64,000 bases of DNA from Promethearchaeota archaeon (GTDB lineage Archaea > Asgardarchaeota > Lokiarchaeia > Sigyniarchaeales > SOKP01): contig JAHPZJ010000019.1 in the NCBI GenBank assembly GCA_019058245.1, forward strand, positions 2,371-66,370, given 5' to 3'. The notes beneath the pieces are model-generated. The model was not told where the DNA came from. It ran no database searches and saw only the letters and a list, made by a program, of their open reading frames with translations. Shown here in pieces: positions 9,058-13,552 of the stretch; positions within the stretch are counted from its first letter, which is position 1; the number at the start of each line of letters is the position of its first letter. The translations under genes were made by a program, and so were the position numbers.

Positions 9058-9891
9058 ATGAAAAAATATGAGAAAGAGACAGGTCGTTATGCTATCTGGC
9101 GGGGAATAATAACTGAAGGATTTAGAAGGTGGCAAAAAGGCGAAAAAGTATATCAAAGAGATAAGGAACGTATCTCATTATACGTTTCTGAACAAACTAA
9201 ATCAAAATGGTTAAACTATACTAAAAATAATGGAGAATTATCTATCTCTAAGCTAATAAGAGAAGCGGTTTCATCATTTATAGAAACTAATTCTAATAAT
9301 CCTGCATATAGGTTATCAAAATTAAACCCTCAAACAATTTCAAATATTTCGCACACTTTAAAAGAGCCATTAACTTCGATAAAAGGGTATTCTCAGCTAC
9401 TACTCGAGAATTACAAGGAAAAATTAAATGATCAGGTATTAGAAACAGTAAGAAATATTTTTGAACAGAGTATTCTTCTTGAAAAGAAAATAATAAATAT
9501 TTTAGATAATATAAAAGTGGAATCGGAATACGATGTGTTATTAATAGAAGATGATCTCGCAACTATTCGATTAATAACTAGCTATTTTGAGAGTAAAGGA
9601 TTTAAATGTAAAGGAGTAGTAAGTGGTTCAAAAGGTTTGGAGGAATTAGGGAATACAATTCCAAAACTAATTTTGTTAGATATAATCTTACCTGATCTTA
9701 GTGGGTATGATATCTGTAAAACAATTAAATCTGATAAGGAATGGGCTCAAATTCCAATTTTCTTTCTAACAGCTATAGCTGGAAGTGAAGTTGAAAAGAA
9801 CTTAATTGATACGAAAGCAGATGGGTATATTTTAAAACCCTTTAATTTTTCTGATTTTGAAATAATTTTTAAGATCTTAAATAAAAGCTAG
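9058..9891 (+). CDS. RHH + HisKA(DHp) + response-regulator receiver protein, paralogue 1 (possible ATT start at 8959)
   Basis: RISLYVSEQTK..W..ISKLIREAV (RHH); ISHTLKEPLTSIKGYSQLL (H-box); receiver residues IEDD, LLD, LTA, LKP; no HATPase domain. Confidence 0.85.
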   Translation: MKKYEKETGRYAIWRGIITEGFRRWQKGEKVYQRDKERISLYVSEQTKSKWLNYTKNNGELSISKLIREAVSSFIETNSNNPAYRLSKLNPQTISNISHTLKEPLTSIKGYSQLLLENYKEKLNDQVLETVRNIFEQSILLEKKIINILDNIKVESEYDVLLIEDDLATIRLITSYFESKGFKCKGVVSGSKGLEELGNTIPKLILLDIILPDLSGYDICKTIKSDKEWAQIPIFFLTAIAGSEVEKNLIDTKADGYILKPFNFSDFEIIFKILNKS

Positions 9892-10193: not shown

Positions 10194-11165
10194 ATGATAA
10201 ATATTTCAAAAGACTCAAAAACGAAAAAAGATACAAATAAAAAGCAATTGGATGATAATTCTGAAAGAAAAAGTATGACTGATAAGGAAATCGCTAATCT
10301 TGATTTAGAGAGTAAAGAAACCAAGCAATTAATGGAAGAATACCAAGAGGAAACCGATAAATATGCAATTTGGCGTGGATCTATTACAGAAGGATTTAAA
10401 AAGTGGTTAAAAGGTGAAAAAATTTATGATAGAGACAAAGAAAGAATCTCCTTATATGTATCCGAAGAAACAAAGCAGGATTGGCAAAATTTTAAAGAAG
10501 CAAATGATTATCCTACGATTTCAGCTTTAATCAGGGAGAGTGTTGACAATTATATTGAACAAAAATCTGATCTTTTTGGGGAAGGATTACGTAAAATGGA
10601 TGATAAAACAATTTCGAACATTTCTCACGCCTTGAAAGAACCCTTAACAACCATTAAGGGATTTAGTCAACTTCTTTTAGAAAATTATAATGAAGAATTA
10701 GATGAAGAAATTCTATCTACTATTAAAAATATTTTTGATCAGAGTCTACTTCTTGAAAATAAAATAATTAATATTTTGGATAACATTGCTGTTGGAGAGC
10801 CGCACTCTCAATATGATATATTATTAATTGAGGATGATTTAGCAACTATCAGGTTACTTACAAGTTACTTCGAAAGTAAGGGTTATAAATGCAAAGGCGT
10901 GGTCAGTGGAACAAAAGGTATAGAAGAGTTAAGAGGCGGTATTCCAAAGCTTATTTTATTAGATATCATCTTGCCTGATATTTCTGGCTATGAAATCTGC
11001 CGAATGATAAAAGATCATAAAATATATAAAGAAGTACCTGTGTATTTATTAACTGCGATTCCAGGCTCTGAAGTAGAGAAGAAAATAGGTGAAACTCGTG
11101 CTGATGGATATATTTTAAAACCATTTGATTTTTCAGATTTTGAAGTTGTTTTTCACTATCTATGA
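10194..11165 (+). CDS. RHH + HisKA(DHp) + response-regulator receiver protein, paralogue 2
   Basis: RISLYVSEETK..W..ISALIRESV; ISHALKEPLTTIKGFSQLL; IEDD, LLD, LTA, LKPF; colinear with paralogue 1. Confidence 0.85.
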   Translation: MINISKDSKTKKDTNKKQLDDNSERKSMTDKEIANLDLESKETKQLMEEYQEETDKYAIWRGSITEGFKKWLKGEKIYDRDKERISLYVSEETKQDWQNFKEANDYPTISALIRESVDNYIEQKSDLFGEGLRKMDDKTISNISHALKEPLTTIKGFSQLLLENYNEELDEEILSTIKNIFDQSLLLENKIINILDNIAVGEPHSQYDILLIEDDLATIRLLTSYFESKGYKCKGVVSGTKGIEELRGGIPKLILLDIILPDISGYEICRMIKDHKIYKEVPVYLLTAIPGSEVEKKIGETRADGYILKPFDFSDFEVVFHYL

Positions 11166-11212: not shown

Positions 11213-11316
11213 CGGGCTATGAGGGAATTTCGCTTTCATTATTTTTTAATGAGCGTTTCGAACCCCCGACCTGCCGGTTAAGAGCCGGTTGCGCTACCTG
11301 CCTGCGCCAATAGCCC
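11213..11316 (-). tRNA. tRNA-Lys(CUU) with a 30-nt intron at 59/60 (11227..11256)
   Basis: Acceptor GGGCTAT/ATAGCCC, D-stem GCGC/GCGC, loop CT-CTT-AA, T-stem GGGGG/CCCTC; BHB helix TTCG/CGAA with bulges AAA and ATT. Confidence 0.92.
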
Positions 11317-11355
11317 ATTTAATAAGCTATTTCTTAACGATTGAAACCTATAAAA

Positions 11356-11457
11356 CGCAGATGGAGGGACTCGAACCCCCGAGCGCTCACGCGCACCGGC
11401 TTACTCGGGTATTAAAAACTCTCAAGGCCGGCGTCTTACCAGCTAGGCTACATCTGC
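11356..11457 (-). tRNA. tRNA-Ser(UGA) with a canonical 19-nt intron at 37/38 (11402..11420)
   Basis: Acceptor GCAGATG/CATCTGC, G73, anticodon stem CCGGC/GCCGG, loop CT-TGA-GA, long variable arm, BHB helix CTTG/CGAG. Confidence 0.92.
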
Positions 11458-11634
11458 TCTTGTTTGATATTCTATTAAAATTTCTTAAATCGTAATTAAT
11501 GGCTATTAAATTAGAGTATATTCTATAAAATAAATTTTTTTCATTTTCTAATGCTTTTAAACTAATTTTTTATAATAGATAAAGAAAACTATAAATTTTA
11601 TGCTACATTGACATCTAGTTGAGTTGGTGAAGAA

Positions 11635-12123
11635 ATGAGCGGGGCAAAGGATTTTCGTTATTTAATACCTGAAAGTTTATTCAAAGAGATTACTCAAAAA
11701 GCCGCAGAAGAGTATCCTATGATTGTTCATGGATGGTTGTTTGCCGATCGTAAAGAGAATTTTGGAATCTGTACAAAATTCATTATGAACACTGATTTAA
11801 GAAAAAATAAAGTTCATGTCAAACCAAGAAGTTGGATGCGGTATAAAAAATCTAAAATCTATAATATGCGTAAGTTTAAAGCCGAAATCGGAGTGGATAT
11901 TGTCTGGATGTGGCACAGCCATCCTAGCGGTAATGAAAAACTTCACACCATTGATAAAAGAATATTAAAATATTTATCGAATGGGGTTATGATCATCGTA
12001 GTACCTGAGGTACCAGATAAAACACCTGAACAAAAAGCCCATCTTGTAGGTTGGTATTACGATAAACGGTATACAAAAAAACCAATTATCGAAAAAATGG
12101 TTTTTGAGATAATTTCTGAATAG
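11635..12123 (+). CDS. JAB/MPN (JAMM-like) domain protein with a degenerate catalytic motif
   Basis: WMWHSHPSGNEKLHTID fits HxH-x7-(S)-x2-D spacing; N-terminal YPMIVHGWL; SD GGTGA. Confidence 0.75.
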   Translation: MSGAKDFRYLIPESLFKEITQKAAEEYPMIVHGWLFADRKENFGICTKFIMNTDLRKNKVHVKPRSWMRYKKSKIYNMRKFKAEIGVDIVWMWHSHPSGNEKLHTIDKRILKYLSNGVMIIVVPEVPDKTPEQKAHLVGWYYDKRYTKKPIIEKMVFEIISE

Positions 12124-12255
12124 AAAGTATTTTTTTAAATAATATATTTTCTTTTTCTATTATTTTTTTTATGGTTTATAAAAAAATATTAAAATTTTAA
12201 AGTGTTATATTGAAATTGTATCACATTAAATTTTAATATTAGATTATATTTACGA

Positions 12256-12338
12256 GCAATCGTCGCTTAGCCTGGTAGAGCGCCGGTCTGCTAAACCGGT
12301 GTCCAATGGATTCGTGGGTTCAAATCCCACCGATTGCG
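12256..12338 (+). tRNA. tRNA-Ser(GCU), no intron
   Basis: Acceptor GCAATCG/CGATTGC, anticodon arm CCGGT-CTGCTAA-ACCGG, long variable arm, GTGGG-TTCAAAT-CCCAC. Confidence 0.96.
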
Positions 12339-12415
12339 CTCATATTATCTGATGAGGATTTTAAATATTTGGTTTTTTAAACAAAAATTAATAAAGAAAA
12401 AATAAAATTATTGAT

Positions 12416-12973
12416 TCACATAAATTTTATGTATTTATATCCTTTATCTTCAAGAATTTTAGTTAATAAAACTTTAAATACAAATTCTACATTTTCTCCT
12501 GTTTTTGATGAACATTCAAGATATTTATAGAAATTATATGATTTCATTATGTCTAACACGTCATCTTTTTTACAAACTCTTTGTTGTTCAAGGTCTAGTT
12601 TACCACCAACCATTATCAGAGGTATATGTCTAACTGTCTTCCCATATTCTGGAAGCCAATCATTTAAAGCAATTAAACTGTTATGATTAGTAAGATCAAA
12701 CATAAAAATTGCTCCAACTGAACCTCGAGCATAACTTGATATCAGGAATTTAAACCTCTTCTGACCACCAAAATCCCATATGTGAAGTGTTATTTTTCCA
12801 TTCTCCAACTCTAAGTCTTTAATATGTACTGATGCCCCAAGAGTCGCTTGCATATTTTCATAAAATTTATTTGTCATATAACGATTTACCAATGTTGTCT
12901 TTCCAACATTTTTATCCCCGAAAATACAAATCTTGTATGATAATCTTAGACCTTCTTGTCTAATTCCTTCCAT
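12416..12973 (-). CDS. Rab-like small GTPase (Ras superfamily)
   Basis: G1 GDKNVGKT, G2 ATLG, G3 WDFGGQ, G4 GKLD, G5 CSSK; no C-terminal prenylation motif. Confidence 0.92.
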   Translation of the reverse strand: MEGIRQEGLRLSYKICIFGDKNVGKTTLVNRYMTNKFYENMQATLGASVHIKDLELENGKITLHIWDFGGQKRFKFLISSYARGSVGAIFMFDLTNHNSLIALNDWLPEYGKTVRHIPLIMVGGKLDLEQQRVCKKDDVLDIMKSYNFYKYLECSSKTGENVEFVFKVLLTKILEDKGYKYIKFM

Positions 12974-13386
12974 TTTTTAGATAACTATATTTGTTTTTAT
13001 TCTTTAATAATTTTTGAGACGGTTAATGAACCATTGAATATAATATTTTACTTGAATATATCAATTCAAGAAGCTCGTAATTAAAAAAATCCTCGCACTT
13101 TTTCTTTATATGTTTAGTTTAATCATTTTTTTAGAAGTTTGAAAGCAAATGGATATTCCATTCAAAAAGTTAGTCCTATTATTGGCTCTGGCATGAAAGA
13201 TCCTTTATATAAAGGTGATGTTGTGAATCTCAAGAATTTTGAAGCATTATAGAATATAAATAAAAAATATTCAAATAAAGAAATCCCGTATTCTTATTAA
13301 GATGCTCAAAAAAGTTAACAAGAATTTTCTTATACAAAAATTTTAATTGTATTTATAACTAAACCTATTTGTAAGTTTATTAAATT

Positions 13387-13552
13387 GGGCCAGTGGTCTA
13401 GTGGTTATGGTTCAATTTTTTAAAAAAATTGAATAATAGACGTCGCGCTAATTTAATATTAAATATATTAAATCGCGAATACACCGCGAAGGTCGGGAGT
13501 TCAATTAGAAAAAAAATTTCTTTTTTTCTTGAAATCCTCTCCTGGCCCACCA
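13387..13552 (+). tRNA. tRNA-Val(UAC) with three 30-nt introns: 23/24 (13410..13439), 33/34 (13450..13479), 59/60 (13506..13535); CCA encoded
   Basis: Removing the three BHB-defined hairpins gives GGGCCAG TG GTCT AGTGGTTA TGAC G TCGCG CTTACAC CGCGA AGGTC GGGAG TTCAATC CTCTC CTGGCCC A CCA. Confidence 0.9.

Follow-up and report, generated by a model that had tools for sequence, protein, structure and literature searches.

Transfer RNA introns of the bulge-helix-bulge (BHB) kind, non-canonical in position and often several to a gene, have already been published for Asgard archaea (Valentin-Alvarado 2024, PMC11291895; Goswami et al., bioRxiv 10.64898/2026.10.13.758758). These two papers describe many introns per gene, D-arm and T-arm sites, genes missed by standard callers, repeated recent gains with little copying between isotypes, and an (alpha-beta)2 EndA splicing endonuclease. 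All these features are shared by the lokiarchaeial genome studied here (Promethearchaeota archaeon, assembly GCA_019058245.1; Sigyniarchaeales, SOKP01). In a stretch of it of 64,000 nucleotides (nt), hereafter the window (contig JAHPZJ010000019.1, positions 2,371 to 66,370), a tRNA-Lys and a tRNA-Val gene carry four introns of exactly 30 nt. The published accounts centre instead on Freyr-, Jord- and Atabeyarchaeia. Heavy interruption of Asgard tRNA genes is established; what appears to be new, as far as the searchable literature shows, is a 30-nt hairpin design with its own loop signature.

The preprint (10.64898/2026.10.13.758758) gives Asgard intron medians of 22-23 nt, and its main text, in the part available, uses none of the terms '30 nt', 'hairpin' or 'ruler'; the 9-bp stem, 5-nt loop and loop consensus described below are in neither Asgard paper to the extent that each is accessible. 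Our search found no literature on a 30-nt intron design, most subscription journals lying outside it. Archaeal tRNA introns in general span 11-175 nt. The same preprint names the route of intron arrival as the central open problem: neither copying nor mobile elements nor reverse transcription, each of which it tested, proved to be a general one.

Three other systems are instructive. The transposed introns of Thermoproteales (Fujishima 2010, via PMC4090602 and the preprint) are, like ours, non-canonical BHB gains at many positions with some copying, but there related sequences recur across isotypes (28.3%), whereas here the sequences are unrelated and it is size and shape that are common. The pre-mRNA intron of cbf5 in Desulfurococcales and Sulfolobales (PMC2738675) is likewise a BHB intron within coding sequence, removed by EndA; it concerns one gene and 16-44 bp with a variable interior, whereas in this one genome we find at least six inserts of 30-34 nt in coding genes, for which splicing is predicted. 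The eukaryotic endonuclease TSEN shares with our introns the idea of a measured distance, but the distance it gauges is that between tRNA body and splice sites, with no constraint on intron length (PMC4090602), while here the regularity lies inside the intron.

The interrupted tRNA genes of the window

The tRNA genes and introns of the locus are as follows; gene limits of tRNA-Lys, tRNA-Ser(UGA) and tRNA-Val are from spliced-profile alignment.

11213-11316, minus strand: tRNA-Lys(CUU) gene, 74 nt mature, one intron
11227-11256, minus strand: Lys 59/60 BHB intron, 30 nt; imperfect stem, all-A loop
11356-11457, minus strand: tRNA-Ser(UGA) gene, class II, 83 nt mature
11402-11420, minus strand: Ser(UGA) canonical 37/38 intron, 19 nt; old, its length varying (18-25 nt in relatives)
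12256-12338, plus strand: tRNA-Ser(GCU), without intron in this genome
13387-13549, plus strand: tRNA-Val(UAC) gene, 73 nt mature, three introns; CCA follows at 13550-13552
13410-13439, plus strand: Val 23/24 BHB intron, 30 nt; old family, four genera, 25-30 nt
13450-13479, plus strand: Val 33/34 BHB intron, 30 nt; immediately 5' of the anticodon, 9-bp stem, 5-nt loop
13506-13535, plus strand: Val 59/60 BHB intron, 30 nt; loop fits the consensus
13506; 13507-13515; 13516-13520; 13521-13529, plus strand: bulge, arm, loop and arm of Val 59/60
13530-13533; 13534-13535, plus strand: central-helix strand and 3' bulge of Val 59/60

The original prediction, made from the letters of the sequence, gave the four non-canonical introns as 30 nt each and the canonical Ser(UGA) intron as 19 nt. 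Spliced alignment agrees on all five. Orthologues without introns agree on the four, tRNA-Lys(CUU) being intron-less in 10 related genomes and the spliced Val and Lys exons being the same as in intron-less relatives (e.g. loci L036, L046, L035); since such orthologues exist, these lengths are fixed independently of the aligner. With introns removed, Val and Lys are 73 and 74 nt with 20 of 21 stem pairs. All four central helices pair at 4 of 4 positions, each a 4-bp helix between two 3-nt bulges and flanking helices. The inserts recur, free of gaps, in contigs from a second study, so these are not assembly artefacts. By sequence and predicted fold, then, the four are confirmed as genuine BHB tRNA-type introns. 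The family of the Lys 59/60 intron, whose hairpin is reduced to 6 bp in the minimum-free-energy fold, is also found at L031 and L044, and the Ser(GCU) gene, though uninterrupted here, has in relatives a 22/23 intron (18-25 nt) and/or a 59/60 intron (29-31 nt). Ser(GCU) is the sole tRNA gene that ARAGORN calls in the window; Val(UAC) is overlooked by both ARAGORN and Rfam. The genome is 29% GC; its closest named relatives are Promethearchaeota such as Loki_b32, with 85% identity in the DUF2110 protein neighbouring the locus.

Intron design within and beyond tRNA genes

Intron lengths were obtained with a spliced profile aligner in which an insert costs the same whatever its length between 10 and 130 nt. 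It recovered 255 of 260 simulated introns of 16-46 nt at their exact length: the pipeline is without length bias. Boundaries of D-loop introns are ambiguous by about 2 nt in length. Several mis-parsed multi-intron genes of relatives were left out of the counts, as were tRNA arrays in two genomes (G061 C54 and C146; G021 C82 and C212), which are dense, mostly intron-less and probably derived from mobile elements or binning contamination. Comparison with non-Asgard archaea rests on published papers. G numbers denote genomes (G000 is this one; G140, G093 and the like are other Asgard genomes) and L numbers loci.

Alignment finds 31 tRNA genes in this genome, of which ARAGORN in default mode finds 6. 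Their 34 non-canonical introns measure 25, 26, 28, 29 (four), 30 (fifteen), 31 (four), 32 (three), 33 (two), 34, 52 and 59 nt, so that 15 are at 30 nt and 23 at 29-31; the canonical introns are of 17, 19, 22, 22, 29, 33 and 44 nt. The 59-nt case, a D-loop insert in tRNA-Leu(GAG) (L563, C25:45192-45398) counted as one, may be a 29-nt intron nested in one of 30 nt; other parses fit. Median non-canonical length is 29-30 nt in eight further genomes of the family. Collapsing related sequences leaves 134 unrelated non-canonical families, 50 at 30 nt, 79 at 29-31 and 103 at 28-33; against a flat expectation over 17-45 nt, 50 of 134 has P ~1e-37. The 30-mers occupy 24 different tRNA positions; by region, intron lengths are tightest in the T-loop (29 of 33 at 29-31 nt), loosest in the D-arm (26 of 61). 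A length-neutral pattern search at 59/60, with a reversed-pattern control near zero, returned 115 introns from 135 family genomes, 63 (55%) at 30 nt and 82% at 29-31, as against 12% and 34%, with a median of 28, among the 150 matches listed for other Asgard families; both sets include related copies. The outgroup genome G093 is also tight, mostly at 29-30 nt, others being broad. On viral contigs the pattern search matched solely outside tRNA genes. The predicted genome-wide peak, whose absence in favour of a broad spread would have told against the idea, is thus present and sharp in both genome and family, and 30 nt is a lineage-dependent mode, not an absolute rule. The window itself flatters it: with about 44% as the rate for this genome, the probability of four out of four at exactly 30 nt is ~0.04.

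The layout first proposed (1 nt, hairpin, 4 nt, 2 nt) is present in all four, but it equals the BHB definition, and the informative part is the 23-nt core alone. Nor is the AT-richness ascribed to the hairpins distinctive: it matches the 71% AT of the genome, individual cores being 50-100% AT. Two features had not been remarked, a fixed 9-bp/5-nt geometry and a loop consensus. The full plan runs: 1 bulge nt, a 9-bp stem with a 5-nt loop, 4 nt that can pair with the upstream exon and 2 further bulge nt, making 30. Across 50 unrelated 30-mers, pairing is seen at exactly nine positions in one register (0.60-0.96), then falls to 0.34, the background. On the RNA strand the loop leans to R-W-T-T-M (purine at position 1 in 41 of 50, T at 4 in 37 of 50, G never at 5; permutation P 2e-4), with control tests on the arms not significant and, as predicted of the unrelated hairpins, no arm consensus. 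The motif is strand-specific (19 of 50 sense, 3 of 50 antisense) and alike at T-loop and other sites. It was replicated in 28-32-mers outside the training set (P 2e-4), where arms of 8-10 nt surround the same loop, and less strongly in nine new families (P 0.025). Within 18 families, variation is lower at loop positions 1, 4 and 5 (0.27-0.34) than at 2 and 3 (0.48-0.50). Arms and loop resemble the host gene or its 150-nt flank no better than permuted hosts, covariation of the loop with the T-loop or the intron 3' end was not convincing, and 9-5-9 hairpins are in no excess genome-wide outside tRNA genes. The introns thus appear to be a genuine lineage-wide class built to one template, and fixed geometry and strand-specific loop bias combined with unrelated arms form a positive footprint that any gain mechanism has to explain.

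The regularity had been presented as one of non-canonical tRNA introns. It holds for them but goes further, 9 of 31 canonical-site families being of 29-30 nt and similar inserts occurring in protein-coding genes. The latter were sought by spliced protein-to-DNA alignment against relatives, by a scan joining open reading frames and by the loop motif; gene names rest on sequence motifs, not on family search.

C23:15430, plus strand: nucleotide-sugar dehydrogenase, 30-nt BHB insert; removal restores a long frame
C22:46679, plus strand: cobO, 30-nt BHB insert; removal restores a long frame
C10:121094, minus strand: ahcY, 32-nt BHB insert; removal restores a long frame
C28:107060 and 106949, minus strand: cdhA, BHB inserts of 32 and 34 nt; removal restores a long frame
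C25:92012-92041, plus strand: rnhB (RNase HII), 30-nt BHB insert with consensus-type loop and in-frame stop
C18:15123: further candidate, 729 aa when spliced
C5:30632, C19:77788, C10:65377: in-frame insert candidates
C2:89799, C2:89906, C4:65594, C4 near 125360, C5:191656 of relative G140 (loci L804-L863): coding inserts

Apart from the candidates, the inserts shift the reading frame or contain a stop codon, and their removal restores a conserved motif; several lie in catalytic motifs, so that the class appears to break the active sites of ordinary enzymes in this genome. The rnhB insert splits the RNase HII active-site motif, which excision in silico restores. Six inserts in this genome accordingly resemble the cbf5 intron in being frame-breaking BHB inserts whose removal restores a conserved protein. 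Of the G140 inserts, which measure 28, 29, 30, 30 and 33 nt, two lie in acetyl-CoA synthetase, one in ribosomal protein uL11 and the rest in two further genes. We infer that such inserts are spliced from the mRNA; in the searchable literature, splicing inside archaeal coding sequence has been confirmed for only one gene, cbf5. No peak at 30 nt appears among ordinary in-frame indels. Outside tRNA genes a strict BHB scan shows neither a 30-nt peak nor a class-wide excess; the few coding inserts disappear in this background. Occurrence of the same size class in protein genes implies that size is independent of the tRNA body. In practice, most tRNA genes of this genome are missed by ARAGORN, and coding genes are split.

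How the size may be set

Presence of the introns is patchy even among close relatives: L060, with 96% protein identity over a fragment, differs at five intron sites in these genes, and an intron seen solely in L060 has the complete design. The Lys 59/60 site alone has housed at least five unrelated families, of 30 nt with a few at 31. Once present, length is kept: within the genus none of 71 orthologous ~30-mer pairs differ, compared with 76 of 93 Ser-Lys spacer pairs and 53 of 97 canonical-intron pairs, and pairing is retained in 22 of 30 two-sided stem changes. The most widely shared D-arm introns, Ser(GCU) 22/23 (18-25 nt) and Val 23/24 (25-30 nt), have drifted.

In BHB splicing an EndA of heterotetrameric (alpha-beta)2 form with an L1/CSL loop cleaves at the two bulges, and ligation of the exons falls to RtcB; the excised piece can close into a dumbbell, its 9-bp stem capped by one 5-nt and one 7-nt loop. 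This genome encodes an EndA alpha subunit (C28:125950-126543) that aligns to A. pernix 3P1Z, inclusive of the CSL region tied to broad specificity, and best matches the crenarchaeal alpha subunit; a second EndA paralogue (C20:60014-60616); and an RtcB recognised by motif only (C25:55337-56809). The broad-specificity endonuclease and RNA ligase needed for BHB splicing are thus both present, in keeping with the (alpha-beta)2 EndA with L1 loop reported for Asgard archaea (PMC5829648). No Cas1 turned up in this genome, in 12 further genomes of the genus, in 13 of g12 or in 3 of g14, and no CRISPR array was seen in this 76%-complete genome; by these searches the introns do not qualify as products of CRISPR spacer acquisition. 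The RVT_1 reverse transcriptase occurs in 11 of 46 family genomes and was not found in this one. Cas1 and reverse transcriptase being sporadic in the family and not found in most of these genomes, a core housekeeping activity is suggested as the factor.

The original prediction had spoken of a ruler-like mechanism of gain or processing, or of a size limit on the excised circle. A strict limit of the latter kind does not fit, since tRNA genes that look single-copy hold introns of 17, 19, 22, 25, 26, 33, 34, 44, 52 and 59 nt; the 17-59-nt introns that co-occur in the one genome likewise exclude an absolute splicing ruler. A size rule at gain fits the data. In this proposal, to which we give roughly even credence, a step that takes its measure from the hairpin of the intron rather than from the tRNA body would act when the intron is gained; new introns would come in at about 30 nt wherever four bases of the site can pair with the intron 3' foot; the same recognition in weaker form, or else palindrome repair, would preserve the length as the arms turn over; and the oldest introns would slowly drift. 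Such a rule would explain both the 29-30-mers with the motif at 37/38, where introns of 17-22 nt suffice, and the drift of the oldest D-arm introns; the complete design of the intron confined to L060 also speaks for it. Several observations weigh against it. The orthologue pair counts are not phylogenetically independent. Families found in a single genome are no tighter at 30 nt (34 of 101) than widely shared ones (6 of 8), so age and length are not cleanly linked. Beyond the family the loop bias is mixed (P 0.002 for 15 outgroup 30-mers; not significant for 28-32-mers by group), and in the window the consensus loop is seen in one intron of four, Val 59/60, the other three belonging to families shared across species. 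Gain machinery and donor sequence were looked for and not found: cores of relatives' introns match this genome's other DNA barely above shuffled sequence, no target-site duplication was seen (junction repeats are mostly 0-3 nt), and the similar copies with target-site duplication characteristic of mobile hairpins of the MITE or REP type were not found.

The same regularity might arise through selection after insertion only: introns of varied size would arrive, and those with a 9-bp stem and R-W-T-T-M loop, being best cut and ligated by the lineage's EndA/RtcB or best recognised by a hairpin-binding partner, would converge on 30 nt. The unchanged length of orthologues, the compensatory stem changes, the constraint on loop positions 1, 4 and 5, and the gradient from tight T-loop to loose D-arm all speak for this account, which we regard as possible but doubtful, in view of the introns of 17-26 and 33-59 nt that survive, within the same cells, in tRNA genes that seem to be single-copy; of the 59/60 site, which closes a 7-nt loop like 37/38, yet in other Asgard families accepts introns of 19-25 nt; and of the cbf5 intron, whose interior is described as highly variable and independent of endonuclease recognition (PMC2738675). 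The gain rule and selection at splicing are close as readings, and both probably contribute. Descent by copying of a few ancestral introns, through transposition of the Thermoproteales type or re-entry of circles, with arms erased by fast compensatory change, we think unlikely. Patchy presence would suit it, and genes that are neighbours or paralogues do share clear copies (Lys(CUU)/Ser(UGA) 59/60 in L032, L037 and L243; Lys UUU/CUU 44/45; Pro GGG/UGG 25/26), but up to 75% identity the similarity across other sites is no different from the shuffled null, bearing out the predicted unrelatedness of the hairpins and differing from Thermoproteales-type transposition; nearly all cores are single-copy in the genome, bar low-complexity near-matches; RVT_1 is confined to a minority of genomes; and cross-isotype families amount to 1.5% in Asgard archaea against 28.3% in Thermoproteales (bioRxiv 10.64898/2026.10.13.758758).

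Rulers of other kinds fare worse. The footprint of an archaeal histone dimer is about 30 bp, and intron size coincides with it and with the spacers captured by Cas1-Cas2; a DNA-side ruler of either sort, apart from splicing, is nevertheless very improbable given the strand-specific loop bias, the absence, outside tRNA genes as a class, of any surplus of 9-5-9 hairpins or of BHB shapes 30 nt long, and the lack of a 30-nt peak among ordinary indels, and for Cas1 it is largely refuted by the searches of genus genomes and CRISPR arrays above. A TSEN-like ruler measuring from the tRNA body could account for the T-loop introns being the tightest class but hardly for the same length at 24 tRNA positions, instead of the fixed 37/38, and in protein genes that have no such body; with a local EndA closest to the crenarchaeal alpha subunit, we attach next to no weight to it. 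Chance or detection bias, to which the four-out-of-four of the window owes something, is already refuted as a general account by the flat-cost aligner, the unbiased simulation and the length-neutral search, and we attach equally little weight to it.

Taking the gain rule a step further, we tentatively suggest, at somewhat less than even confidence, an undescribed intron-making pathway in Lokiarchaeia and other Asgard archaea; it would build or deliver hairpins of 30 nt, with 9-bp arms, an R-W-T-T-M loop and a 4-nt foot fitting the target, and insert them both into tRNA genes and into mRNA genes. If true, the sister group of eukaryotes would have an ongoing, spliceosome-independent intron invasion of protein-coding genes. 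The fixed geometry supplies exact substrates for enzyme tests.

Neighbouring genes and other observations

Between Ser(GCU) and Val(UAC), in a stretch of about 1 kb, lies a small GTPase of the Ras/Rab family (PF00071; 12416-12973, minus strand); the two tRNA genes almost adjoin in many relatives and in contigs of three sequencing runs. On the plus strand, 9058-9891 and 10194-11165 are tandem paralogues resembling, by translation only, signalling proteins with kinase-dimerisation and receiver domains, and 11635-12123 has a weak JAB-domain match under the Pfam cut-off. Records titled Thorarchaeota, Hermodarchaeota or Nanopelagicaceae (L035, L039, L044, L046, L053, L058) have a Loki-type locus at 58-81% protein identity, and their titles are probably wrong. 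The region C30:226893-228940 is the sole GC-rich island (51%) of the assembly; it is coding-like, and no rRNA-like island was seen.

Several other tRNA genes merit mention. A tRNA-Ile(UAU) gene (L562, C14:85042-85246, minus strand) holds four introns of 25, 44, 30 and 31 nt, and tRNA-Ile with this anticodon also occurs in G021, G024, G026, G027, G061 and G140; to our knowledge it is unusual for archaea, and a literature search returned nothing. A tRNA-Sec gene (L803, C14, ~82525-82676), missed by standard tools, has introns of 34 nt at 16/17 and 30 nt at 59/60. The T-loop starts with A at 54 instead of T in Thr(GGU) on C29 of this genome, in His(GUG) of G002 and in Ile(GAU) of G061. The canonical-site intron of Met(CAU) and the 21/22 intron of Leu(UAA) are old and keep a GGGTCA motif across families (G000, G002, G006, G024, G031, G032, G068, G143), which suggests a role, such as that of a modification-guide target.

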